In this document: positions 6,955 to 34,821 of the stretch, in pieces
Numbering within the stretch: the first letter of the stretch is position 1
Layout of the letters: the number at the start of each line of letters is the position of its first letter
The notes under the pieces: generated by a model
What the model was told of the DNA's origin: nothing
What the model saw: only the letters and a program-made list of their open reading frames with translations
Database searches by the model: none
Translations under genes and position numbers: made by a program
Source of the DNA: Dirinaria sp. TL-2023a
Lineage: Eukaryota
Assembly (NCBI GenBank): GCA_051941275.1
Contig: JAVEBF010000045.1
Location: 1-40,637 of the forward strand
Direction of reading: 5' to 3'
Length of the DNA stretch: 40,637 nt

Positions 6955-9001
6955 TCATCCCTTCTCCACATCTCCTCCGCTCTTCCTATTCTGACTCAAT
7001 CGTTTATCTTCAGCGCGCAGCCGCTCCTGCTCCGCCAGCCCTTGCTTCTGGATCTGATGCTGCTTGCTGAGCTTGTTCCGGCCAATGGCCGCGCTGCAGC
7101 AGATGCCGAGAGCGGCGATGGCGACGTAGAAATACCACATGGTTCGCAGGCTGGCCGTGTAGGCCGAGGTGGCCATGTTGCGCTGCGTGGGGAGCAGGGA
7201 TTGCACGATGTTGGTGCTTGCGCCTGCGCTGCCGCCACCCAAGGCACTGCCGACTTGCGGGCCCAACGCAGCTTGCAGCTCTCGCGCGTGCTTCGACATG
7301 CCGTTCTGGAAAATGACGCCGCCGATCACCACTGAGATCGAGGTTGCGAGGTTCCGCACGAAACCGAATGTTGCTGTTGCGCTGGCGATATCCCGTGGCT
7401 CGATTAGCGACTGCAGTGCGATTAATGGGGCCTGGAAGTTCGGTCCTACGCCTAGGCCTGCGATGATCTGGTAGATGATCAACTTGTCCCAGGAGCCCTT
7501 ACGGTTGGGAAGGTCGATGAAGAGCCCGAAGCCGAGCGTCATGAAAGCCATGCCTAACCAGATTGGGGGCAGGTATTGGCCTGTTTTTTTAATGTAGATT
7601 CCTGTGCCCATGGATGTGAAAGACATGGAGAGGACGAAGGGAAAGGTGTAGACTCCAGAAAGAATGGGCGTCGCCGTATATACAGATTGAAAGTAGAGGG
7701 GAAGGAAGTAGGAGGCAGCGATGAACACCGTACCATGGCAGAAGCAGACCATGAGCGCGGCGATGTTCGAGCGGCGCGAGAAGAGCCGAAGCGGCATAAC
7801 CGGGTAGACAGCTAGCCTCCATTCATTGAGGAAGAATAGTGCCAAGGTAACGAGGCCAAAGACAATGAGACAGATAACCGTGGCGGATTTCCAGGGGAAA
7901 TTGACTCCGCCATATTCGAGACCCAGGAGGAACATTAGAGTACCTCCCACAATCGTAATGCAGCCTATCCAATCAATAGCTTTCAGGCTCGCAAGCAGCG
8001 GCGATTTAGGTATCTCAATGTCGAGCAGAAACAATATGATGATAAATGCTAGCCCGTCAAAAGGAACTATAGAGGTAGCTCATTTAGCATTGCATCTTCA
8101 TATGATGGGGCCAAGAACGCTTACGGTTGATATAAAAACACCAACGCCAAGATACTTTTTCAGTAAATATACCGCCTAGCACTGGTCCGATAGCGCTGGC
8201 TATGCCCCAAACCATGCCGATAAAACCAAAGTACTTTCCGCGTTCCCTGAGGAATAGTGTCAGGGCGTGGCTATAAAGCCATCAACGGTGGCATCCATTC
8301 AGACTCACCTCATGCTAAATAGATCGCTAATGCAAATATTGGCTAAAATAATCAGGCCTCCACCTCCAATCCCTTGTATAACTCTGCCGCCAATGAGCAT
8401 CTTGACGTTGACGCTTGTGGCTGATATGAGGGATCCAAGGAGAAAGATGGCGTTGGCGAAGAGCACAATTGGTTTCCTTCCCCAGATGTCACTGAACTTT
8501 CCCCACGTAGGCGTCGATGCTGCGGCGGCTAGGAGGTAAGCCGAACCGATCCAAGTATAGTCTGCTTCTGAGGCGTGAAACCGTGAAGTGATTGTCGGGA
8601 TAGCAGTCGTAATGATAGTCTACTTAAATTCAGCCGGCTTTTCGCCTCCATGCTCGAAGCAATACGATACTCACCATGTCCAATGCTGCGAGAAAGACTG
8701 CTATCTATGGGACTGATCAGCTTCAGATCGGTATCGCCACAAGGTTTGTCAAGCTTACGCATAGTGAGAGCATGATCAATGCGGTCTTGAGTTTGCTCCG
8801 TTGTGGCGCTGCTGGCTCCTCTTCTTTCTTTGGTTCTGCAACATCTTCTGAAGAGCCGCCTGGCGACAGGCTCTTAGCCCGATCTGAGCTTCCGTCGCCA
8901 GCAAGTCTAGCAGTATGTTCAGATTCATCTGCTCCCATTCCCGCTTCTGCGACACCTTCAAGACGGGACGCCTCTGAGGGCTCCTGGACCGGAGGTGCCA
9001 T
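6955..9001 (-). CDS. MFS multidrug/toxin efflux transporter, DHA2 (14-TM) family; multi-exon
   Basis: Many hydrophobic TM segments; motifs [70 protein letters not shown]; introns in the 5' half (8035-8760). Confidence 0.92.
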
Positions 9002-10333
9002 CAGATGAAAAAATTATCGCAGAGAAAGCACAGAGCAAGATAGAAAAGTGCAAGAGAACGTCCAGCCCAATCGATATGGGCGTCTAGTCTTGGTGGCGTG
9101 ATATGACGTGACTTGAGGAAGGGCTATCAAGAACAATGAAAGTGCTTTTTAAAGAGCCAAGAACCTGTGTTCTAGTGACAATACTGTATGATGGAACGGA
9201 ACAACTATCCTTCATCAAGAAACGATGGAAGGAGCCTACCATATGACTGCAAGCGAAAGACTACCTCAGTGTTCCCACCTCCAACAGAATCTGGACTTAT
9301 ACATACTGGCCGCCACCCATTTCTAATCTACTTTGGATCGGAAATAGGGTGATCGACCCCGGAGCTACGTCGGGCTAACTACATCCGCCTCTCTTCACAC
9401 CTCCTACATTTTACCTACGGAGTACGCCGACCGACGCCATAAGTCCTGGCTGGCGTCATGTACGTTAATACTAGTCGTCCAGGTGAGTACAGGTAGACTT
9501 GGCAGAGCCCAGGTAGCAAACTGAAGCTTTCGAGTGATAGTTTTAGGTGATCCCCCGGGCGACTTTCGCTTGACCCCCCACCTGTCGCATTGGCCGCGCT
9601 AGCCAGCACTTATGCCTAAGATCCGCAAAAGCCGAAAGGCCGTTGCACATACAGTCCTTACTCGACGGGTAAATAATATGCCTGCTCGTTATGATTCGTC
9701 GTGAAACCCGAAATCTGCTGCTTGTTTCGTGGATCCGTGACTAGAGGGAAAGCTTGTTTTTCATCTGCCGATTGCGTGCCGAGACTTCAGACTTGCGCGT
9801 TTAAGGTAATTCGCTGTTGCGTACCGTGGGACGATGCAAACATGAACACACTGGAGAATGGCCTGGTGCTGTGACCTCCGAACGGTACATCGTATGTACG
9901 TACATGCCGCAATTCCAGTACCTGTGCATGTGTAGCTTTTGAACAGGAATACGCGTACGATTAGCAATCGCGAGAACCGCTACATGAAAACTCCCAAGTC
10001 CGTCAATTCCGATCAGACATTTTGTAGAAATGGCAGGATTCTACGAGCCCCCTCGACACTCAACAGTACACGATGTATTCAATGGGAGCTTCAAAATTGG
10101 TTGTACTACGTACTGTATAAGCTGGCCGAACCGAGAAATATACGGCAAGCGAGCGTGAAGGGTATCTTCCGACTACAAGTCCCATCATGAAGCCAAAACT
10201 AGCTCTCGTACATTCATAACCCATGTCGTAGGGAATCCCCAAACATGTGCCTCGAAAAGAATCAGATGAAAGCCCAACATCCCACCACTTATACAAAGGT
10301 GCCTGCCGTATGCAGGATCTGAATGCAAATCTA

Positions 10334-19967: not shown

Positions 19968-20054
19968 AGCCGAAGGCGGGGCTCGAACCCGCGACCTTGA
20001 GGTTATCTCTTGCAACTTAAGAGCCACACGCTCTACCGATTGAGCTACCCCGGC
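19968..20054 (-). tRNA. tRNA-Lys (anticodon CTT) with 14-nt intron at 20004-20017
   Basis: Minus strand reads GCCGGGG TAGCTCAATCGGTAGAGCG TGTGG CTCTTA[agttgcaagagata]A CCTCA AGGTC GCGGG TTCGAGC CCCGC CTTCGGC T. Acceptor, D and T arms pair, A and B boxes are present, and the intron is at the canonical 37/38 position. Confidence 0.93.
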
Positions 20055-20568: not shown

Positions 20569-21518
20569 CTAAAAACACGGCCCTTGAATCAATCCCTGTT
20601 CCCAATTCCCACCCAAAACATCCTCCATCAACATCTCCCCGGATTCCATGTGCCCATGAGGACAAACCTCGGTCTTCTGTCTCTCGGCCACTCCCTCGCT
20701 GCCATGATGGATCATCATGGAACAGTACTGAGTCGAGAGGTCCCAGCTCGCAAGGACGCAGTCCTTCATCGAGTAATGGCACAGGGTGCAGCAGAAGTAG
20801 CCGGACGAGGCCGTCGCATTTTGGTAATGGAACCCGACTTGACCCCAGGGAACAGCACGGACGAATCTGTGGGTGGTGCCGCTGCTGCATGCTGCGGGAG
20901 ACCGGATTGTTAGCAGCGGAAAGATGGAGAGTGGGATATGGGAAGGAGGGAATAAATACCATCAGGATGAGCAGCACCCGTGGTGTTGGCGGGGGTCGTG
21001 CTGCTGTGGGTTGGTGATGCGGTGGTGGACGAGGCAGTGGTCACCATGGTGGTTTTGGAGGGAGCCGTGCTGCTTTGGGGTGGTGTGGTGGTGGGCGAGG
21101 CAACACTCACGGTGACGGTTTTGGAGGAGGCCGTGCTGCTGTGGGGTGTTGCGGTGGTGGGCGGGGCAACGGTCACCGTGACGGTTTCGGCAGGGGCCGT
21201 GCTACTGGGCGGTGGTGCGGTGGTAGACGAGGCAACGGTCACCGTGACGGTTTCGGCGGGGGGCGTGCTACTGTGGGGAGGTGCGGTGGTGGACGAAGCA
21301 GCGGTCACCGTTACGGTTTCGGTGAGAGCCATGCCATCGAGAGATGATGAGATGACTGGTATGATTGGCATGGTAGTTATCACCGTAGTAATGTCCGTGG
21401 GAGTATTGTAGGGTAACAAGATCGTGAGCATGGTAGCGGTCACTGTGGCTTTGGCGGGGGCCGCGACCGTTAAGCCGGTGAGGAAGCTGACGATGATGAG
21501 GACGAGAATGGAGTTCAT
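20569..21518 (-). CDS. Secreted Thr/Ser/Pro-rich tandem-repeat (mucin-like) protein with C-terminal Cys-rich PAN/apple-like domain; exons 21518-20960 and 20891-20569
   Basis: Signal peptide MNSILVLIIVSFLTGLTVAAP; 22-aa repeats; intron 20892-20959 (GTATTT...GCTAAC...CAG) joins in frame to ACSSG...GYFCCTLCHYSMKDCVLASWDLSTQYCSMM...VCPHG...LIQGPCF*. Confidence 0.82.
20985..21323 (-). repeat. Coding minisatellite, 66-bp unit x ~5 (ETVTVTxASSTTAPPxSSTxPA)
   Basis: Repeated acggtcaccgtgacggtttcggc...gccgtgctactg blocks at 66-nt spacing. Confidence 0.9.
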
Positions 21519-21547
21519 CTTAATAGTGGTGGTGTAGGAAGCTAGAT

Positions 21548-21625
21548 GAAGTTAGGAGCAAGAAGGAAGTTAGGAACAAGAAGGACGAAGTTAGGAACAA
21601 GAAGGATGAAGTTAGGAACAAGAAG
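21548..21625. repeat. 18-21 bp tandem repeat x4 (GAAGTTAGGAACAAGAAG) in the probable 5' UTR of the mucin-like gene
   Basis: Copies start at 21548, 21566, 21587 and 21608. Confidence 0.88.
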
Positions 21626-21754: not shown

Positions 21755-22038
21755 GGCTCAGAAAGGAACACTCAACAATAAGCAATTTTTTGTTGGAGTG
21801 ATTTGCCACAAGAAGCCTCAATCGGACTAAAGCTCTCAACCGCAGCATTTGGGTGACTGAAGACCGAGGCTAGAAGAAAAGTGGAATTTGGCTTAGGAAG
21901 GAACACTCAACAATAAGCAATTTTTTGGAGTGATTTGCCACAAGAAGCCCCAATCGGCCCAACAAGCTCTCAACCGCAGGATTTGAGAGACCTTAATCGA
22001 GTGACTTCAAAGAAAGAGGCCAGAAAAGTGAAATTTTT
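21755..22038. repeat. ~135-bp tandem duplication upstream of the mucin-like gene
   Basis: aaggaacactcaacaataagcaatttttt(gt)tggagtgatttgccacaagaagcc..aatcgg....aagctctcaaccgcag.atttg occurs at ~21763 and ~21898. Confidence 0.9.
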
Positions 22039-22935
22039 TTCATGAGTCCTCAATAATCTGGCAATACTGAGACTGCTTGATTTGTTTCCCGCAATCCCTG
22101 CTTGGAGGCATGGACCAGGATTCAGAAGAAGATTCAAACCTTTCAGTCCTCAAGCTTCATAGCATTCTGTCTCCTCGCACTCTTCTTTACCAATGAATCA
22201 ATATTCTAACAGGCCGGCCAAGGGATGTTAGCATTCATGCTTGTCGGGGCACGAGATAAATAGCGCTCTCTTGAGCAGGGTGAATATTTCTTCACTGTTC
22301 TGCATTCCTGGAGAAAACACTAAGAACCCTTGTGTCTCTGCCAGATTCGTTGTAACTAAGCTTTTAGCCATGCTTGAATGGCCAAAGGATTGCTTGAGTG
22401 TCTCCGACGTTCGCCAAAATGCGCTCGCGATATTAGCGTTGCTTCATGATGAGATATTGCATCGGTCATAATTATTGCTGCCCACGCCGCCCTCCCCACT
22501 TATTGTTTTCCATCTATCAATGCCTCTCTCAAAAAATTTTTTCTCTAACACCTTCAACCTGCTTTAACGGTTTGCCTATTTGACGATGGCACGTGCGTGG
22601 TGAAATCAGTTCATCGTCATCTCGTGAAATCATCGTTGCTTGAAACTCGCACTCTGTCAGAGCAAGAGATCGATAGATCTTAAGCTCGAGGCATCAAAGA
22701 GATCGGATGCATTATCACCCGAGAATGAGTAGTAGTTCGTGGGGAAGGGTGGTATGCCAGTAGAGTAGGGTGGTGTGGCGGCAGTGGGATCCTGATTATC
22801 ATGTTCAGCGTGGCTTTGAGGCATCAGAACATTTATTGAGCAAAGTGCGATATTGTCGCTATTTTGAGTGCCCGAAGAAAATACTAAGGTAAGTTTCTAG
22901 GGTGTCCAAACTAATGGGCGCGGGATATCGCTGCT

Positions 22936-24573
22936 TTACTTCTTGCCGAAATAATTCATCAAATTATTTTTCTGAGGCTTTGCAACTTCCTTCTTCTGTT
23001 TGGCTGGACTTCCCCCCTGCACAGGGTCAGGTTTTTCTCCGATCTTCATCAAAGCCATAAGCTCCTCGAATGCTGCAGCTGGGACAATGCCTCCCGAGGC
23101 TTCTTTGTGTCCTCTAGCAAAGCTCTGGCCCATTCTTTCGACTAAACCAGTAGTGTCGAGATCTGCGACAGCCTTTAGAGACTCAATGGTATTGACAGGT
23201 GAGTCCCTGGACTGTGCTGAGCGAGCTATACGGCATGAAAAGTTCACCATGCCAGGCAAGTAGCCCGTGTTCGCCACCAGGACGATTTCAAGGGTCTTTG
23301 AACTTAGGTGGCCAGCCTATTTGACGTTATTCTGAATCCTATCGCGCTACCTTGAGTGACACATACCCATCTTGTAGCGATGACTGGATGTACTTGAGCA
23401 GCGCTATGTATTCGCAGTACTGCGATCTTCCCGTCTTTGCTGAATTTTGGTGGGGCGTGTGTATGTTTTTCCACCTCGTCGTTGATCTCGGCGCGCGCAG
23501 CTAGTAACCTCTTGTTGGTTAAAAGTTCTTTTGGGTTCTTCGCGTCTAGCAGAGCCTCCCAGGCTGATACCACGTCATACTTCGATGTCCTCCTGGCTGG
23601 ATGATATGAGCTCTGCCTTAAAGCTTCCATATTCATGACACTTACGAGCATTAATGAGAGATACAGCGTCATTGATAGACTTTTTAGTATACGTCTTGAA
23701 AACCTCGATCATATCCGGAAATGGGGGCTTCCACTTCAGTGTGGTACCGAGGTCACCGTGAGTACCCATGGCACACAAGTAACCGCAGGATGTCTCGATA
23801 TCAGCATGCAAGGTTTTGCATATCTCATAAGTTAACAGAGACGAGGTGGCGACAGGCGGATAATGACAGGCAGACACTACCTACAAGGGTGTAAGCAAAG
23901 CACGCTGAACGATCTGCCAATAATACCATTGCGTCCTTTGGGAATTCGTCGCTTAGATGGTGATCAATTATCAATGCTTCAATCTCCGGAGAATCTACTA
24001 TTGGCGGAGCGGCAATGCTGCCTTGATCGACGACAATAATGTACTTTGGTTCTCTAGCTTTCATCGCTGCCCTCTCTTCTTCGGAATGGACAGTAGCTCC
24101 CTTCTGAATTAAATGCACATCAATCAATGATGGTGATAAGCCTAGAGCTGTAAGGGTTCTGTGGATAATGACGCCAGCGTCAAGACCATCTGCATCTTTA
24201 TCTGGAACTATCAAAGTCCTCCCAGAAGACGTGGCACTTGCTGAAGTTAGCATTGTCATGTTTTAAGATCTCTGACTGACCATTGTTTAAGGAATTCGCG
24301 AGCGTTCTCTATTGCCTCAGAAGGCGCTGGCCAAATGTTCGAGCCATCATTGTTAGTCAAACATGGTGCATCGCAATAATCTGACTCTGGTTCCCTACTG
24401 CGCTGCTTTTTGTTGGCCTTTGTTGACAAGCCTGAAACAGGTGCACGTCTCTTCATCGTCCGTGCTCCTATTGCGCGACGTTGTACTCTCCAAAGTTGCA
24501 ATGACCTAAAGGCGCCAATTGGAGTGAGGAGCAACGATGCCTTCCAACGTGCACACTGTGAAAGCAGATTCAT
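22936..24573 (-). CDS. DHH/DHHA1 family phosphoesterase (RecJ-like putative nuclease); multi-exon; second in-frame ATG at 24456
   Basis: Motif I IVPDKDADG, motif II IIVVDQGS, motif III LIIDHH, motif IV MGTHGDLG; DHHA1-like C-terminal VNFSCR...ARGHKEASGG; exons separated by short GT-AG introns. Confidence 0.88.
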
Positions 24574-24703: not shown

Positions 24704-24758
24704 GTGCTACTCACTTGTACCTTACTTGCAGTACCACCGCAATTTAATATAGAATGAG
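24704..24758 (+). repeat. Left copy of an imperfect direct repeat flanking the NLR/effector block
   Basis: gtgctactcacttgtaccttacttgcagtaccaccgcaatttaatatagaatgag; aligns with 33175-33235. Confidence 0.7.
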
Positions 24759-24949
24759 AGCTTCTTGGTGTCAGATGGACGATCCTAACGAAATGCTACG
24801 GGACAGAAGTGTACGAGTGCCAAGAAATGCCAAGCCATCAGATAAGATTCTCTATCTCATGAATCGGGTTTGTCAACGCCATTTCCCTTCCCTTGACATG
24901 AAGTTCTAATTAACTTCAGAACATTAGCTGCGTGGAATATGCTGATGTA

Positions 24950-27900
24950 ATGGATCCCATGTCTATCTTTGGCCTTGCCAGCAACGTTCTCCAATTTGTC
25001 GATTTCAGCTTCAAGCTCCTGAACAGCACGCAGAAATTATACATGCCAGCATCAGGAGTCTCCGGGCAATGTCAACATCTTGGTAGTGTCCATGTCAAGC
25101 TTCTGGAGTTCAGCACGGAGCTTGCGGATTATGAGACTTCTAGTGGCACAGTGCGTACCGCGTTCAATTGCCCCAGTAAATCTAGGAACGAGACGCATTT
25201 CAGAGAAGTAGCAAAGGCTTGCCAGCAGGACTGCGAAAGACTTCTGGTCATTGTCGAGAAGCTTAAAGTCGGAAGCGGTAAGAAGAGAAGATGGTGGTTG
25301 AGCTTCTCCAAGGCAATCCTCGAGGTGTGGGCATCCAAGGATCTTGAGGAGCTTAAGGCTCAAATCAACAACCATCGAAATGACATGACTTTAAGGCTCT
25401 GCGCAATGTCTTGGTGGGCCCTGCTTTGATGGACACATATCAGCTACTAACCGTACCCGTAGCGAAAATGTGAATCTTTCAATCACTGAACTACAAAAGC
25501 TAAAGATCGAGACTAACTCAGCAAATGAAGAAAGGCTGCAGCAATTCCATGTTTTGAGAGATTCCTTGGAAGATCTGCACCGCGAGATTCAGCACATCAA
25601 AGCCCAAGTGATTGACAACGAAAGATACGGTGTTCGCAGGGGATTGGAACAGGAAGAACTTGATTTGTTGACAGCAAAGACTGCTTCTTTGTCGCTCTCC
25701 GAACAGAACTTTGAAAAAGAAGAAGCCGTACTCTCTAGTCTAAACTTTCCGCAGCGAATCAGACGATACGAAGCCATTCCTGAAGCACATCAGAAAAGCT
25801 TCAGATGGATTTTTGACGGCCCTGAACAATCAAAGTATTCATCAGAGCCTCGATTTCGTGAATGGCTCGGAGTGAGTGGTAAGCCATTCTGGATCTCTGG
25901 TAGGCCAGGTTCTGGAAAGTCTACACTCATGAAGTTTCTTGCCAACGCGCCAGAAACCATGTCGTCTCTATCGTCATGGGCAAGCCCTAAACGATTGATC
26001 TTTGCTAGCCACTATTTCTGGAGTGCTGGCTCACCTATTCAGAGATCTCGGGAAGGCCTTCTACGCTCTCTACTCTACTCTTTCTTAAGTCAAGCTCCTG
26101 AAATGATAGCTTCGATATGTGGAAAGCTGTGGGAGAAAGATGCGCCCGGTCTGCATCACTATAGTTGGTCTTTCACAGACCTCGAAACATCCTTGTATAG
26201 GATTGCCAAACTCAACCAAATATCTGTTAAGTTCTGCTTCTTCGTTGACGGTCTTGATGAGTTCGAAGGAGATTCCTCTACCCTATCTCAGCTTCTGCTG
26301 GATCTTTCCCGCAATGCAGATATCAAGCTCTGTGTCTCGAGTAGGCCGTGGAATACCTTCGAAGATAGCTTTGGTCGAAACCCGATATACAAGCTCTATG
26401 TCCACGAACTAACACTAGACGACATCCAAATGTATGCTAAAAGCAGGCTGTTGGAGCATCCTAGATGGTCGGATATAGCTACTGAGGCAGGGCTAGTGGA
26501 AGATCTAGTTTTCGAAATCACAAGACGGGCCCAGGGCGTTTTTCTTTGGGTTTTTCTTGTGACGCAGCTACTTCGCGAAGGCCTCACTAACTACGATAGT
26601 ATAGCAGACCTCTGGAAAAGGTTGGAGAGCGTTCCTGTGGATCTTGAGCTATTCTTCAGACATATCCTATCATCCATTGAACCTTTCTACCACGAGAAGA
26701 TGGCTGGAACATTACTCATAGCGTTAAAAGCCGAACGTCCGCTTCCGATTGAGTTCTACAGTTACCACGATCTGGAATATTCGGACGAAAACTACGTTTT
26801 TCAACACGATCCACGGCCTTTGAGGGATCAAGAAATCAAGAATCTTCACCATTCGACTGCACGGCGTTTGAATGGTTGGTGCAAAGGTCTTATTGAGGCT
26901 CGGGATGGTGAGGTCGAATTTCTTCACCGAACCGTCAAAGACTTTTTACAGACAAGAGATATGATGGATTTCCTTAAAGATAGGAGTCGCCGCGGATTTC
27001 ACCCTAGCTTGTCATTGTGCCGGGCTTCTATTGCTTGGACGAAGGGTAGGAGATTCTTCAAGGAAGACCTGTGGAGCAAACACGCGCGTTGGAATGCTGA
27101 ACATTACACGTTCAGTGGCAGTATACATGAAATCTTTGAGTTTGCTGCATCTTTGCCTGGTGAAGCTGAATACCAAGATCCACTCGAGATTTTACTGGAC
27201 GATCTCGAAAGTTCTGCTCAAAAGATGTTTAAATCCGGTCAGCTGCAGGTCATCGCTTCTCACTCTACTAGAACGAGCGCCCAAGACGTCCGAACGTTTT
27301 ACCGGCAATTTGTCATCCATCATGATCTTAGTGACTACCTCTCTCGAAAGATAGCCTGCGATGCTGAGTATCTCGCCGACTCTGATCAACCTCCGCTGTC
27401 GATGGTGCTGCATGATTGGGTTGATGGGGCATTTGAAGAGCGCTATCTAGGACAATATCCTAATACGCTGGAATGTTTGTTAACACATGATGAAAGCCTC
27501 AATGAGCTCATTGCCGATGAACTTTCGGGAGCAACAACAACTCCGTGGACAGACTTTATCAATCACCTAATTGGTCAACTCATGAAAGCCCCAAATGGGT
27601 ATATTTTTGCGAACATACTCAATTCTGGATTGATTTCCTTACTCTTGCGTTATAATGCTGACCCTAACGCCTGCATTGAAGGACTTTCAAGCAAAGTATA
27701 CTATAGCCGGATCCCATTCTGGGTGGGATGGCTCTTGCTAATCTTCCATGTCCCAAATCTCTGGAGATGCCAAGATCAGTACCTACGTGATCTGGGACAG
27801 CTTTTTGAGGTAGGCGCTAACATTAAACTGATAAACTCACATGTGGATACAGAAATCGCATCCAAAGTTACTTCACTCTGGATGCTTTTCTGTAGCGAAC

Positions 27901-28247
27901 TTGACAAATTTGCAACCAAAATTGCCGGACTGGGCAACTTGGATGGAACGAATGACAAACAATTGGATTTCGTAGCTCACGTGCTTATAAAGTTTGCAGA
28001 GGCTGCAAAGAATGATGTTGTGGATTGGAATGCTACCGTGCCCAGCTTGCGCCGCTTATTTCCCCAGGGACAGCTCCGCAGAGTACTTGAAGCCATGAGC
28101 ATAAGCGTCCAGGCCGAGACCACACACATGAGGAAACGATTTCGAAGACCTACTCCAGATGCCGGCGACTCTTCTGCCGCAAAGAGACGGAGGGAATCAG
28201 TAGGTGGAGATGAGAGGACTGAAAGACAGCTTCTTGTTTCTGACTGA
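24950..28247 (+). CDS. NACHT-NTPase fungal NLR-like protein with N-terminal SesA/HeLo-like helical domain; one intron at ~25414-25462
   Basis: N-terminus MDPMSIFGLASNVLQFVDFS, typical of fungal STAND N-terminal domains; FWISGRPGSGKSTLMK (Walker A), CFFVDGLDE (Walker B), KLCVSSRPW, AQGVFLWVFLV, VEFLHRTVKDFL; degenerate ankyrin-like LLLRYNADPN. Confidence 0.92.
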
Positions 28248-28880
28248 TTGGAGCGCACGATATTCAAATAGTTCAAATGAGACATTCGCGGGGCACTCGA
28301 GGGTCGTTTGACTACCAGAATAATTCAATTTTTGTAGTGTACATGAATCAGTAGACGACTCTTGCGAGACTGCTCTTCCGTCGAAAATACAGAGCGGATA
28401 CTCGGATTCGTGTATGTGATAGAAAAGGGATAATAAAGTCAGCAAGGAAGAGCCTGTATCGAGAGGATGACTGTATACAACTTCAGCGCCGAGCATTTCG
28501 AAACCCAGTCTATCACTATTATCACCCGCTCTTGACTGTATACACGAGCAATCCCCGAGTACGCTAAGTATCAACTACAAACGTGAAGTGAATAACTAAC
28601 GCGAGAGTGAGCACTGATGGTAACACTAGAGATAGATATAATGATACGAACATCCCTCAGGCGCTCTATCGTACGCGCTCTTCGTTTCTAAGGGCTACTG
28701 TTTTCTCATAGATTTATCATTTGCGCGGCTCTCATTCTCCTTTCTTCTATTATCCTATCTCTATTCTTTTCACAAACGGCGCAAGCACTCGGCTGAGAAA
28801 ATAGCAAGCATGACAGCCATTGATACAAGGTGAGGAGGTTAGCAAGCAAGCAAGCATGTGTGTTGCACGTTTCGGGCAGG

Positions 28881-28916
28881 GACACACACACAAACACACA
28901 CTCTCTCTCTCACACA
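28881..28916. repeat. Compound (CA)n/(CT)n microsatellite
   Basis: gacacacacacaaacacacactctctctctcacaca. Confidence 0.75.
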
Positions 28917-28942
28917 GAGGCCTTTATAAAACTCGTCACACA

Positions 28943-29490
28943 TCAGGCAGATGATCTCCCATCCTTCGAAACGGTCAAGCTATGACCTTCAGTGCAGCAT
29001 TTGCCGGCTTTCGCTGAAAACTTTGTGATTGTGTAGTGAGCCTTGCTCATTCTAAGGCTCAATCTGAGCTGTAAAGACGGTACAGGCCACGAATGCAAAA
29101 CTCTCCCAAATAATAACTTACTTCGCTTCCATCAGGACAACAATGGCCGCTCGACTCGTGGTAACCTTTCTCACAGCACTTCCAACACCCATTTGGATCA
29201 TGCCCCGGTACAGGATTGCCACTACAGTTATGAGAAGTTGAAGGAAACTCTCAGTCTTTACGACAACAAATGTGATTCTGTTCGTTGAAGTCGGAGGTTT
29301 CTATTTTCCTCCTTCAATAAACAGTCCCAACACTCGGGCCCCTTTGGTCTGTTTTCCACACTATAGCCGGGGTCACAGTCAGGGGACCGCCCGTTGATGC
29401 CGTATCAGAGGGACACTTATCGGTCAGTGCGGTAGCAAAGGGGCGGGACTGAATGGCTGCGACAGTAATAACACTAATAGGTAGCCTCAT
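28943..29490 (-). pseudogene. Decayed gene for a probably secreted Cys-rich (CC-repeat) protein
   Basis: ATG 29490 MRLPISVITVAAI...DKCPS; apparent frameshift near 29405 into YGINGRSPDCDPGYSVENRPKGPECWDC; further ...HICCRKD*...GCWKCCEKGYHESSGHCCPDGSE|GTAAGT intron|FSAKAGKCCTEGHSL; TGA at 29314-29316 and 29251-29253 in the ATG frame. Confidence 0.6.
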
Positions 29491-31647
29491 GGTGATCAAG
29501 AAGAGACTATCAAGTATTCCATCCAAATCAAGTTTAATAAAACGGAATGTGATATAGAGCGTTGTGAGATAGGTTGCTGTATTCAAGTCTCCACGGAAGT
29601 CACTGAGGTCGTACGCGATATCGACGCAGTTGAGGAAGCCGGAGACGTGCTAAGGGTGCTTTACACATGTATCTCCAATGCCTACCAAAACAACTGCCAA
29701 ATGCATCTAGAAGGTCCATGCGATATGCTCACTAATGGAGCATATCGGGATGACCGAAGGCCTGACAAACCCTGCCCCTAGGTCAGCTGGCTGCAAGCAA
29801 TCCCACATACCTATATGCGCACTCATAAGTGGCAATGGCATCAACGGCATCATCCACGCAAGGCCGTCTCGGTATGCCCAAGACTGCATACAGGCCGCGG
29901 CATCTGCTAGGTACTGAAGTTTGACACTCACAATAGACTCCATTCTGGCGACGCGCACGTATCTACTCAAAGACAATCGAAGAGACTTGATACCAGTAAC
30001 AGCAAGCAACTCCGAGTTGTGGATCAACTGATCGAACAACACCTGGCGACTCTTGATATGCATGAAATGACTGATAAATGCATCCAAAATCAACGAACTA
30101 CATATGCAAAGAGACAAAAGTGCGTCGGCTTGAAATAGACGTTCAATTGACTCTCATATATGATGTTTTCTCCGCAGTATGCGCCTGAAGCAAGTGGGGG
30201 AAGCTCGATCGATACCAATAACGCTTTCACGGGATCGTGCCAGGGACACACCGCAGGCAGTAGAAAAGCAAGTAGTACTGGAGGCAGTATGACTCTGAGC
30301 GCGTCAAGCCTCGCTCAAAGTAACTGAACTCTGCCACAAACCGCGAGGGAGGCCGTACCTCAAGGTAGAGATGTGTGCCGCTGCCGCTAGGCCCTGATTT
30401 GGCAGAAGAGTAGCGACAGGAAGCATGTGGTTCCCCACGGAGCCGTGTCGATCTACAGAATGAGAAAAGCCTAAGGTACGTATGGGTACGGGTGATAGCC
30501 GTTAGCGGCCCACCCCGCTTAGATACAGGCGCTACAGTTTCATCGGCGCCTTTAGAAAACCCCAAGCGACACGCCAGTAACACAGCTTCGAGGTTTGAGC
30601 TGCATCGATGAAAGCACCTCGCGGTTTGCAGCAGAATCCGGATACTTTGTGCGGGCTTGGCGCATTTAGTGTCCTGGTCGACATGCAAAACGCGAAAGTT
30701 CAGAGTAGGTAATAATATGTACCTCAGAGAAGGTAACTTACCATGCACAGTGTCATTTTTGCTCGGCGTTGGCGGAATTTACTAATCGAAAGCTAATGCT
30801 CATGCAGGTAAAACATCATGAGTTCTGGCTAGCCCAGTGTTTCCGCATTCTTTGTCATCCAGGTGGCTATTACCACGGGTCTGTACCGATGTGCTTGGCG
30901 AGCATAGCATCCTAGGAGAGGAATCCGGACAATATGGATCCTGGAAGGTCCGCTAGGTGGTCTCCAAATCGTCGCACTAGCGGCGCCGATTGGAGTGGTA
31001 GTGGAAAAACACCGCGTGTACTCTGTTCGATCATCCATTCCCCTCAATGTCAAACATGGTGAAAGTCCCCGAATCCACGAAAGTCCTCAATCCCCGTGTC
31101 ATTGCCGTCAATGGTCGTATGGATTTCTCTGGTCATCTGCTCTCGACTGCATACACGAGCAGTCCCCAGTCATGCTGGCTATCATCCAAATATACCCGTA
31201 CCATGAGTGACTAATGTACTAATGAGCGCTATATTCGCATTGGACATATAGACAGATGCTGAGGGTCCGAGATAGCCAAAGAGACGTAGGCATGCATGAA
31301 GAGAATGCACAGAGGAAATTGAACAGAGGGCGGCTTTGACAACGTGGAATGCCTCTCACCCGATCTTTTCGGCGATGCCGGATAAAGAGCCATAATGAGA
31401 GGGACTATGCGGAGAAGTAAGAGCGCTTTGGACGCTTTGCATAGCCAGTAGATCTTTCGAGCTCGCGTATTCAGACCTATTCCCGACAGAAACTGCGGAT
31501 CCACGAGCACTTACTATCTCAAGGGTAACGTTGCTCCTGTCATGCATACACGAGAATAAAGAAGGATTGCCTAAGATCGTTGATTGCTGTCGGTCACGCA
31601 ATAGAACTCTCATGCTTGCTTCTTACTATGTCAGTGCTCTCGGTCAA

Positions 31648-31655
31648 TATATAAA
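31648..31655 (+). promoter_or_regulatory. TATA box of the small secreted Cys-rich gene
   Basis: TATATAAA ~140 bp upstream of ATG 31789. Confidence 0.6.
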
Positions 31656-31788
31656 GGCTACTGTCTCCATTCGAAACTGACAGTTTCTGTCCACAAGTCA
31701 TCAAGATTCATTAGAGCCATCATATAGCCATAACACCACTAGGCCTTGACCTCTCCATCAGAACCGTACGCATCCTGCATCAATCAAG

Positions 31789-32275
31789 ATGAAACACATC
31801 ACACTTATCGTCGCTGCGCTTCTTCCAGTCCTGGCAACTGCCAATCCTCTTGACATTACAGTCGTGTCATCGGGTCTTCAATCTCAATCTGGGGGGGAGT
31901 GTAGGGAGGACCTTCTTTATTGCGGTCACAATTTATTGGATAACCATGGTACGCCCCATGAAGTGTGTTCGCTTTAACGAGTAGCATGAAACGTCAAGAA
32001 GACGACTCAATCCTTGAAACTAATATATCTCAACAAAAATAGGTTTCAAGGAGGATCAACTGAAAAAGACCTGCACTGGGCGGTGCGATACCGAGTATAT
32101 CAGAGAATCCTTGTTCCTCTGCCAGGGAGATAAAAGAGTCGCATGGGACAGAGAGTGCATAGAGGGGTGCGACATCACGAATCCAACGCTCTCCGACAGG
32201 TGCTACTCAGGTTTGAAGCAAAACCCTGGCAAAAGCCACAATGACAACGAATTCCAAGTGAAGATTAACCTCTGA
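31789..32275 (+). CDS. Small secreted Cys-rich protein (130 aa, 8 Cys), effector candidate; exons 31789-31948 and 32043-32275
   Basis: Signal peptide MKHITLIVAALLPVLATA; intron GTACGC...CTAAT...TAG; spliced ECREDLLYCGHNLLDNHGFKEDQLKKTCTGRCDTEYIRESLFLCQGDKRVAWDRECIEGCDITNPTLSDRCYSG...KINL*. Confidence 0.85.
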
Positions 32276-33174
32276 GCGTTATTTTTCCAGCAGCAGTAAC
32301 ACGACGACAAGATCTCCAACCTCTCTCCGGCCTCGAATTGCACGAAGAGATCTTACGACAGAGCTTATGTCTTTCTTTTCAGGGTTTCACGAAAACTTGC
32401 CACTCTTTCAAGAAATAGAAAACGAATCCAATCCTTAAGAAGCTTCCAAAGGAAGAGAAACTAAAGGAATGGCCTTCAGTGCTCCTTTTGACACGCTGTG
32501 CCAACAAAAAACCCCTGTGTCTAATCAATTTGAACAGCCCCTTGAGCCCCCCTCTCAAACTTTTTCCAATCCTGTAAACGAACTCTTCCCGCTCCATCCC
32601 TTACGCCAGCCTGCTTGTCAGGGCGTCCCCGCTACCAGTCAATTTCTTGAGCTTAGAGACGAGATGCTTCGCTAACTTTGCGAACCTTCACCAATTGCCC
32701 ACAACAAATCATCTGAATACCCCTCAGAAGCCACTCCTTCAGATAGCATTTAAAACCCAATGAATACTTTGCAAACAAGTCCATGCGCGAAGAATCTTAG
32801 AACTAAACATTGAAATTGAGAAAGTAGATTACTAATGTCCAGAGAAGCAGGGACCCACAAATTTTTGCACCTCAAGGTAAAGTCGGCACGGCATCTTCAT
32901 CACAGAGCACAGTAAAATCCAGTCATTTCAATTACTTATCTTATAGTGCATAGCGAGATAAGTAGCGATGTACGTTGTTCATACAAGACGCGAGTACCTT
33001 AAGCATGTTGTTTCGCGAGACTGTTTTGGATGTTCCCATGAAGGCCCGCTAATATTGGAGCGGAGTTTTATTGCCCGATTGGGTTTAGCGCCCAAAGGGC
33101 TGATACTGCCGTGGGTACCGCAGCTACCTTAACGTATTTAGCATGCCCCAAGCACCTTAATACCTTACAGGAGA

Positions 33175-33235
33175 GTGCTACTCAAATGTACCTTACCTTA
33201 CTTACTCGCAGCACTACTGTAGGTAATCCAATGAG
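33175..33235 (+). repeat. Right copy of an imperfect direct repeat flanking the NLR/effector block
   Basis: gtgctactcaaatgtaccttac(cttacttac)tcgcagcactactgtaggtaatccaatgag; aligns with 24704-24758. Confidence 0.7.
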
Positions 33236-33396
33236 GTAGTACGAGTACATCAGCGTCGTCGGCCATGCCAAGACCGCACTAGAATAGCCGCACTGCCGCA
33301 TCACTCAATCGTGCATGAACTTCCCCGCCCGATATCTGCCAAGAAACCCCAATAGCCTCTACCGATGTGGCGCCCCACCACGGCACTGGTGAGGAC

Positions 33397-34821
33397 ATGT
33401 CGTCCATCGCCGAGACGCAAGCAAGGACGGAAAAAGAGATAGACTCGAAGTACAAGGCGGAGCATTCCCTGCAGCTGGCGCACCGCGAGTCCCAAGCCGC
33501 CAGGACCCTCCAGCGGACCTACCGAGGGCACCGCGAACGCCGACAGCTGGCGGGGCTGAGCCTGGATCCCTCGACACGATGGGTTGAAGCGATCAAGGAA
33601 GCTCAGTACCGTGAGCTCACGAGGCCCCGCCCACGCAGCTCTGCCAGCGGCCAGGAAAGCAGCGATGCCAGATCTTTGGAAGCGCGCCAGAGTTGGCGGC
33701 GCGTTGGCGGCATCGCTCGACGAGCTGGCGGGGATGCAAAGGACGATGAGAGTCACTCGTCTGGGCATGAGGGTGATACAGCTCAGAAAAAACCTGCTCA
33801 CCAACAAAAGCAGTCAAGCCCACGAGGAAATTCCACCCAGATGATGGACCTGTCCTACTTTCTGGAAATGGTTGATGTGAAGCACCGTTACGGCAGCAAC
33901 CTTCGAAAATACCATGCCGAATGGCAGAGAAGGGAGACCCATGAAAACTTTTTTTATTGGTTAGACTGCGGTGAAGGAAAAGAGGTGAGCCTCGAAAATT
34001 GTCCGAGGGAACGGCTCGATGCGATGCAAGTGCGGTATCTGAGCCGAGAGGAGAGGCTCAATTATCTCACCATGCCCGACGAGGAAGGGAGGCTGTGTTG
34101 GAAAAAGAATGGTATCAGGATAGACACGAGCGTTAAGTGGAGAGATTCGATTAATGGCATCGTTCCAGTGGACGATCCAACCCCAGCCTTTGATTCAGCA
34201 GCCCGAGGCACCCAAGTCCCAGCGGCCCCAGCAAATCCTTCGAGTGGATCAGAGAGCGGCGGAATCTTCGATGCGGATACCGAGAAGGGCGAGAAGAAAA
34301 CGACAGAAGTTCCACCTGAACAAATACTCAACCGACTAGTCAGGAAATCCTCGACGAAAAGCAAGTGGATCTTCGTAGCCGACACCTCGTATAATCTCTA
34401 TGTTGGCATAAAGCAGTCAGGTACTTTTCAACACTCCTCTTTCCTCCATGGCTCTCGGATTTCCTCTGCAGGCCTCATCAAGATCAGAGATGGTAAGATC
34501 AAGCTCCTTCAACCTCGTAGTGGTCATTACCGCCCTCCAGCATCCAATTTCCTTGCCTTCATTCACGCTCTTCGCGCTCGTGGTGTTGATATGTCCGCCA
34601 CGAGCGTCTCGAAAAGCTATGCCGCATTGGTAGGCATCGAAGGATACATGAAGGGCAAAAGCGCGTTAAAGGAGACAAAAGCGAACTTGAGTAGGATCAT
34701 GAGCCCGGAGAAACATCATGGAGGGGACCATCATGACAATAAAGAGAAAGAGGGGAAAGACGGAGGGAATAGGGAACATGAGGGATTTGCGAAGAGGCTG
34801 ACAGGCAAGCTGGGGATTTGA
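33397..34821 (+). CDS. IQ calmodulin-binding motif protein (plant IQM-like family), intronless
   Basis: IQ-like AARTLQRTYRGHRERRQL; YFLEMVDVKHRYGSNL, ENFFYWLDCGEGK, VRYLSREER, KWIFVADTS, FQHSSFLHG, SGHYRP are IQM-family motifs. First in-frame ATG is at 33397 (the ORF track opens at GTG 33367). Confidence 0.88.
   Translation: MSSIAETQARTEKEIDSKYKAEHSLQLAHRESQAARTLQRTYRGHRERRQLAGLSLDPSTRWVEAIKEAQYRELTRPRPRSSASGQESSDARSLEARQSWRRVGGIARRAGGDAKDDESHSSGHEGDTAQKKPAHQQKQSSPRGNSTQMMDLSYFLEMVDVKHRYGSNLRKYHAEWQRRETHENFFYWLDCGEGKEVSLENCPRERLDAMQVRYLSREERLNYLTMPDEEGRLCWKKNGIRIDTSVKWRDSINGIVPVDDPTPAFDSAARGTQVPAAPANPSSGSESGGIFDADTEKGEKKTTEVPPEQILNRLVRKSSTKSKWIFVADTSYNLYVGIKQSGTFQHSSFLHGSRISSAGLIKIRDGKIKLLQPRSGHYRPPASNFLAFIHALRARGVDMSATSVSKSYAALVGIEGYMKGKSALKETKANLSRIMSPEKHHGGDHHDNKEKEGKDGGNREHEGFAKRLTGKLGI

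Follow-up and report, generated by a model that had tools for sequence, protein, structure and literature searches.

Contig C45 (JAVEBF010000045.1) of the 27.7-Mb, 3105-contig fungal assembly of Dirinaria sp. TL-2023a was analysed at its whole length of 40,637 bp, hereafter the window. It carries an 8.5-kb block with an NLR-like gene and a small secreted-protein gene, set between two conserved genes, one of the DHH family and one IQM-like. From left to right, the order is DHH, a first copy of repeat A, the NLR, a first copy of repeat B, a Cys-rich open frame, an element with inverted arms, the second copy of repeat B, the secreted gene, a remnant resembling a long terminal repeat (LTR), the second copy of repeat A, and IQM (Table 1). 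A first-pass annotation had described this block as a single island that inserted into, or can loop out of, an ancestral DHH-IQM promoter, possibly as a relic of a Starship transposon. We find that the DHH-IQM interval is best read as a lineage-variable accessory-gene slot and not one mobile element.

We compared four of five sequencing runs of related material, seen as contigs: X5 (DNA), from a relative that is ~91% identical, and X1-X3 (RNA), from one sample that is 3-4% diverged. Where contigs failed to cover the sequence, at 28680-30009 for the RNA runs and at some places in the block for X5, the gap was disregarded unless a contig joined across it. Two metagenome loci of a relative, L012 and L013, supplied the outgroup; they are 99.4% identical and thus represent one species. 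The relatives covered are therefore one outgroup species and two related samples, and the Dirinaria assembly itself is fragmented.

Genes of the slot and their history in relatives

The gene calls for the NLR, DHH, IQM and the eight-cysteine (8-Cys) secreted protein were borne out by Pfam matches, homologue names or spliced RNA, and DHH and IQM do point outwards from the block. Five translated pieces of DHH matched L012/L013 at 44-91% amino acid identity with their order kept, and its start (24456) was set by comparison with L012. IQM gave no match in the Pfam scan and takes its identity from the names of its homologues, the best of which are from lichen-forming Lecanoromycetes, the top one being labelled Dirinaria.

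Table 1. Features between and including the two conserved flanking genes (window coordinates)
Feature	Position	Strand	Evidence or placement
DHH-family gene, multi-exon, conserved left flank	22936..24456	-	PF01368; synteny
Left copy of repeat A, within the 490 bp between the divergent DHH and NLR genes	24704..24741	+	246 bp upstream of NLR start
NLR-like STAND protein, 1082 amino acids, intact	24950..28247	+	Pfam domains; orthologue; DNA and RNA contigs
Left copy of repeat B, a nested direct repeat of about 115 bp, 66% identical	28522..28634	+	shuffles; blastn
Cys-rich open frame, unverified as a gene	29485..29781	+	open frame only
Sub-block of 2.9 kb without counterpart here in X5	30130..33009	.	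contig joint 30129 to 33010
Element with inverted arms of about 58 bp	30291..30695	.	arm sequence at two further genome places
Repeat B, right copy, at 5' edge of secreted-gene unit	31133..31248	+	alignment to left copy
Secreted-protein unit	31233..32537	+	spliced RNA contigs; two paralogues
Decayed sequence related to a dispersed, LTR-like repeat of ~170 bp	33025..33131	+	16 other pattern matches in genome
Right copy of repeat A, with a slippage-type expansion of 9 nt	33175..33221	+	222 bp upstream of IQM start
IQM-like (IQ-motif) gene, conserved right flank	33397..34821	+	homologue names; synteny with L012/L013; RNA contigs

The NLR has one intron (at about 25414-25462) and a NACHT/NPHP3_N domain with Walker A and B motifs, followed by DUF7791. 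Its N-terminus is weakly SesA-like, with a SesA match under the cut-off, and of the C-terminal repeat domain usual in fungal NLRs the Pfam scan found no ANK, WD40 or TPR match. DNA contigs of X5 and RNA contigs of X1-X3 cover it. To judge from its family, this protein is probably an ordinary fungal non-self sensor, and its genome holds at least 22 NACHT matches, this NLR being one. Its orthologue P0123 shares 88% identity; the closest protein match stands at 88-89%, the next at 49%, and homologues in lichens at 44-52%. IQM, in contrast, found proteins at 87, 83 and 67-78%. Because the NLR lacks any match between 49% and 89% while IQM has many at 67-83%, the NLR orthologue appears, from these protein comparisons, to be confined to a narrow clade.

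We then considered the outgroup. Among 80 metagenome loci with an IQM homologue, DHH was present at two, L012 and L013, where the gene order MSB1-DHH-IQM-TBC-unknown-methyltransferase is the same as in the window. At 36 distant loci with at least 3 kb upstream (of 78), DHH was never found near IQM, so that the DHH-IQM linkage is a clade-level one. In L012/L013 DHH and IQM are 1.75 kb apart with neither the NLR nor the secreted gene between them, confirming that both genes are lineage-specific. The slot is occupied there by a BTB/POZ frame (8482-9192), which is intact in L012 and has an early stop in L013. The expectation of an empty site is not borne out: the NLR is missing between DHH and IQM, but the slot holds a BTB gene, and no copy of repeat A was found in the non-coding DNA of L012/L013, which is too diverged to align to the window.

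The closer relatives separate the history of the NLR from that of the rest of the block. Differences per aligned length between X5 and the window were 87/1003 and about 64/785 for the NLR, 76/811 for DHH, 57/646 for IQM and about 147/1672 for TBC, indicating that the NLR has aged with its neighbours. In the RNA sample, which has contigs for both the NLR and the secreted gene, the counts were 12/477 for the NLR and 75/1861 for IQM. X5 thus keeps the NLR, whereas one X5 contig (depth 8) runs from 30129 to 33010 with 6 letters between and skips the sub-block with the secreted gene. Sites orthologous to the window but without the gene in question are accordingly seen in L012/L013 for the NLR and the secreted gene and in X5 for 30130-33009. 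The ends of the X5 joint differ from the repeat A copies, and none of the joints listed (15 of 35, plus a separate joint table) linked one repeat A copy to the other. These data do not support the original proposal of one insertion, or one excisable unit, with repeat A at its ends.

It is very unlikely, in our estimate, that the NLR has instead long been present here and that the lineage of L012 lost or replaced it, with repeats A and B as remnants of tandem duplications of the interval. Such a history would suit the single outgroup species seen, the lichen homologues at 44-52% and the tandem duplication of 135 bp that lies nearby (21755-22036); it sits poorly with the empty range between 49% and 89% among NLR matches, given the many IQM matches at 67-83%.

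Other features lie to either side of these genes. The 135-bp duplication is upstream of a Ser/Thr-rich, secreted-looking gene with 66-bp internal repeats (20910-21551). This gene is not in the MSB1-DHH interval of L012/L013 and is a second lineage-specific gene beside the block. An intron-containing tRNA gene at 19968-20054, matched in L012 as well, was the only hit of an Rfam scan of the window, and three direct repeats of ~45 bp lie close to the contig end (40226-40495).

Direct repeats around and inside the block

The two stretches named by the first-pass annotation do align, including the CTTAC-type expansion in the right copy. The core of repeat A (24704-24725 / 33175-33196) is identical at 20/22 positions, and the whole (24704-24741 / 33175-33221) at 31/38 with a 9-nt gap, giving an alignment score of 41. 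The gap is a 9-nt CTTAC-type tandem expansion of the adjoining unit in the right copy. Five of the seven mismatches are C/T transitions, every one preceding A or G. The length of 55-60 bp did not stand: the stretch running on to 24758/33235 is no part of the best local alignment, and the 11-mer preceding both copies was matched by 54/1000 shuffles, leaving a supported repeat of about 40-50 bp. The similarity of the downstream flanks was likewise matched by 181/1000 shuffles, and an extension of repeat A to 150-200 bp through colinear micro-matches was rejected as insignificant by shuffling.

Repeat A is not a dispersed repeat. Its 20 informative bases matched these two places alone in the genome at up to two mismatches; at up to three there were three matches (one extra), against three in a reversed control. 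The dispersed-repeat reading was rejected on this count of two copies and on a DNA search; the latter is insensitive to old copies and missed the second copies of both A and B. With only two copies and no gag or pol Pfam match among the block frames, we saw no sign of an LTR retroelement bounded by repeat A, and membership in the LTR-like family was dismissed (a score of 27 at best when compared with the flanks of 16 LTR-like copies). Nor does repeat A form a hairpin or structured site (fold z-scores -1.2 to +0.6), and it is not shared with NLR paralogues or with loci of Starship captain genes (best scores 25 at 19 NLR loci and 29 at 8 captain loci).

A repeat this short and mismatched sustains little recombination. 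The longest perfect run in repeat A is 10 bases, which makes it an unlikely substrate for loop-out today.

Could repeat A be a kept promoter element, the NLR having captured a copy of the sequence upstream of IQM? Both copies face the same way and lie 246 and 222 bp ahead of plus-strand starts, repeat B has a similar position with about 650 bp between it and the secreted gene downstream, and the right copy is upstream of 33368-33376, where the RNA contigs of IQM start. However, the element was not found upstream of IQM in L012/L013 or near the NLR paralogues and captain loci scored above, it has no special fold, and contigs cannot give transcript starts. We regard this explanation as improbable; it is compatible with the one that we favour below, to which it adds selection.

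Inside the block, we observed a second direct repeat that was absent from the first-pass annotation. Repeat B (28522-28634 / 31133-31248) scored 74, was reached by 0/1000 shuffles and had a blastn E of 3.5e-5, far stronger than repeat A. Its right copy precedes the secreted gene, whose coding sequence (31789-32275, intron 31949-32042) encodes 131 amino acids with 8 Cys and a signal-peptide-like N-terminus. The gene is spliced in the RNA contigs of X1-X3 (three runs, one sample), and the RNA sample carries an in-frame 18-nt deletion at 32208. The unit has two dispersed paralogues on C1410 and C1429 at 61-66% nucleotide identity, and the three loci share about 1.3 kb, flanks included. The protein gave no Pfam match, and database searches with exon 2 found no homologue. 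It was apparently missed by the source annotation, since the NLR and IQM bear consecutive gene numbers.

The claim of a decayed Cys-rich gene is sound as to the open frame and unverified as to the gene: the frame found no Pfam match and 0 matches among 1.84 billion representatives. That this frame and the secreted gene are tandem paralogues was rejected, as 286/500 shuffles equalled their similarity. One X2 (RNA) contig lacks 33068-33134, part of the LTR-like remnant.

Comparison with Starships

Starships are described as elements of tens to hundreds of kb with a DUF3435 tyrosine-recombinase captain as the first gene and with short direct repeats, sometimes also terminal inverted repeats, at ends that an empty site fixes (PMC11162782, PMC13486527), and degraded Starships without a captain as carrying at least three auxiliary genes (DUF3723, FRE, PLP, NLR) (PMC9156397). 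Several features recall such elements. The block holds an NLR, and SesA-NACHT NLRs are among the Starship auxiliary genes (PMC9156397); lichen Starships also carry NLRs (PMC13486527). The motif TTAC(N7)A, given as the Hephaestus target (10.1101/2022.08.04.502770), occurs in both repeat A copies, as the first-pass annotation had it (24722 and 33202; 33193 too). A DUF3435 (PF11917) search returned 8 matches on five other contigs of the genome and none on C45.

The block itself departs from Starships in most other respects. The absence of a visible captain was upheld: four captain frames from C1129 gave a best E of 0.99 against the window, revealing no captain remnant, and no DNA similarity of the block to captain loci was found. 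Among the long block frames scanned, the NLR was the only auxiliary gene, one versus the three or more of a degraded Starship. The block is 8.5 kb, below the Starship range, and a 17.9-kb Starship candidate is rejected in PMC13486527. We found no short direct repeat or terminal inverted repeat at its ends; there is instead the ~40-bp degenerate repeat A, against the 4-5 bp direct repeats reported for the lichen Starship Tangerine (PMC13486527). The motif occurs 61 times in the window (1.5 per kb), and since the repeat A copies are homologous its presence in both counts as one event. The NLR, moreover, diverges in step with host genes.

Traces of repeat-induced point mutation gave no further support. 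A CpA-based index was negative throughout the block. Observed/expected CC/GG was 0.65-1.2 in the block, with a mild dip, the lowest, at 28248-29000, and a genome median of 0.89; it was 0.50-0.68 at five of seven captain loci. The DUF3435 captains elsewhere in the genome (L004-L011, L126) include those on C1129, which have long open frames and lie beside a GH47 gene; captain loci other than C1129 show stops and CC/GG depletion.

Taken together, the block resembles Hephaestus and Tangerine in being an accessory block with a SesA-like NACHT NLR and TTAC(N7)A in a genome with captains elsewhere. It differs in having no captain, one auxiliary gene, a small size, a long degenerate repeat and no clean empty site, and in that its parts vary independently. 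The Starship link is thus largely refuted, and we hold it to be a very remote prospect that the block is what is left, without its captain, of a Starship of the Hephaestus or another type inserted at TTAC(N7)A.

Origin of the flanking repeats and their wider meaning

We next asked how common such brackets are. In 40 stretches of about 10 kb from the same genome, 9 of 1252 tile pairs scored at least 41 in direct orientation (6 stretches), compared to 1 of 1252 in inverted orientation; several of these were transposon pairs or internal gene repeats. The excess of direct over inverted pairs points to genuine direct duplication of local sequence as a fairly common feature of this genome. We also compared upstream with downstream sequence at 18 of the 21 other NACHT matches (three short contigs were left out, and five had <2.2 kb downstream). 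At the same threshold, 2 direct and 0 inverted brackets were seen among the 18, and 1 direct and 1 inverted among 44 controls.

One of the two direct brackets is a MITE pair. The other lies on C271, where an NLR of the same family is enclosed by a ~280-bp direct repeat of 61% identity (L165 1806-2086 and 7628-7899; E 5e-10), in a geometry similar to that of repeat A: the left copy is just upstream of a divergent neighbour, and the right copy coincides with the 3' end of the open frame that follows. A search for further copies found none. This bracket is the best candidate for a landing-site duplication. The locus has an additional 54-bp repeat pair.

Within the window, a decayed duplicate of the DHH 3' end (22271-22476 / 22836-22968) brackets a 5'-truncated copy (22475-22793) of a ~350-bp element resembling a miniature inverted-repeat transposable element (MITE), with a score of 46 reached by 0/1000 shuffles. 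The MITE-like family has terminal inverted repeats, and scoring 40 candidates gave 65 matches at 73-95% identity. The element has a short match in L012 (9665-9691), and many unrelated run contigs pile up on it in the window. The family was rejected as a maker of long flanking repeats, as its other copies scored 17-32 (13 of 14 testable) versus 46 here. A 169-bp repeat at L170 was also dropped as a bracket of host sequence, since its two copies are the LTRs of a small LTR-like element (L170 6799-9149, on C15) just upstream of an NLR, with 169-bp ends that are 96% identical and one 381-amino-acid frame with a C2H2-like stretch; no pol was seen. This family has about 16 genome copies, most of them apparently solo.

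The explanation towards which we lean, with modest confidence, is a stepwise accessory-gene hotspot in which repeat A is the decayed insertion scar of the arrival of the NLR. We reasoned that a hotspot would account for the BTB gene in the outgroup slot, the NLR common to X5, the sub-block that is absent there and the small repeats inside the block. The NLR would have arrived before the split from X5 and, given its intron, as DNA. It may have entered without a dedicated recombinase, through break repair or through integration of a DNA circle at short homology, leaving local promoter DNA duplicated on both sides. Repeat A would be what CpG/CpA transitions and slippage have left of this landing-site duplication. 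In a separate event, the secreted-gene unit may have been added here, or lost in X5, with repeat B as a similar scar.

That repeat A is a chance match chosen after the fact, in a locus of plain NLR and secreted-gene turnover, seems to us unlikely. Searched against the whole window, the repeat is unremarkable (blastn E 0.40, Gumbel E 0.30), and 1/300 random 55-mers score as high there. Its flanking micro-matches are insignificant, other loci in the same geometry score 38-40, and no copy was seen in L012/L013. On the other hand, when the search was confined to intervals whose bounds were fixed by gene starts and synteny, independently of repeat A, its score was reached by 0/1000 shuffles (DHH-ATG to NLR-ATG versus secreted-gene stop to IQM-ATG) and by 1/300 when the second interval ran from the NLR stop to IQM-ATG. 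The C/T changes before purines at 5/7 mismatches and a gap in which the neighbouring unit is repeated in tandem also speak against chance. We conclude that repeat A is probably real, old and local, and at most the faint scar of an old local duplication.

The weak window-wide statistics are not the only findings that weigh against an insertion scar. Enrichment of brackets at NLRs is not established (2/18, one being a MITE pair, versus 1/44), and two other NLR loci score 39-40 through low-complexity matches. No empty site with a single repeat A copy was seen, and a single outgroup species sets the polarity, gain here versus loss in relatives. That the NLR adjoins DHH in X5 is suggested by record length and depth bins, without a listed bridging piece: a record of 1706 bases begins in DHH, 895 of its bases are unlisted, and the next bin matches its depth.

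A flanking-repeat system in plants offers a parallel. Transposed genes of Arabidopsis have direct repeats of host, non-transposon sequence on both sides, for which circle integration or long target duplication has been proposed, and the repeat is present once at the orthologous empty site in 13/18 cases (PMC2869330). The fast-turnover classes described there are LRR genes, defensin-like and small secreted Cys-rich genes, and F-box genes. Repeat A is likewise a two-copy, non-transposon host sequence, weakly supported at p of about 0.001-0.003 within bounds. Unlike the Arabidopsis repeats, it is shorter and older, no single-copy empty site was seen, and the comparison is between a plant and a fungus. 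NLRs of the Podospora complex show presence/absence between species, high turnover and occasional translocation (PMC13449251). The block NLR, by contrast, has no repeat domain of high identity that was recognised, and in two comparisons its divergence does not exceed that of its neighbours.

A broader proposal, which we offer as speculative and doubtful, is a captain- and transposase-free route that moves NLR and secreted genes and duplicates 50-300 bp of the landing site, be it a neighbour's promoter or 3' end. A literature search at overview level returned no description of captain-free, landing-site-duplicating gene movement in fungi. If the proposal is true, repeats A and B, the DHH 3'-end duplicate and the C271 repeat would be scars of differing age, and each new NLR, on landing in a divergent promoter, would at once have its own copy of regulatory DNA. 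It would be a fungal counterpart of the flanking-repeat gene transposition of plants and a second route of NLR turnover beside Starships.

Overall, the locus is an ordinary case of turnover, in which an NLR and a small secreted gene occupy a variable intergenic slot and the flanking repeats are weak. It cautions that an NLR together with TTAC(N7)A is insufficient for calling a Starship relic. The 8-Cys gene, an expressed member of a small orphan family with three loci, is a candidate symbiosis or antimicrobial protein. Should long landing-site duplications prove general at fungal NLRs that have moved, they would bear on how single NLRs relocate outside Starships.

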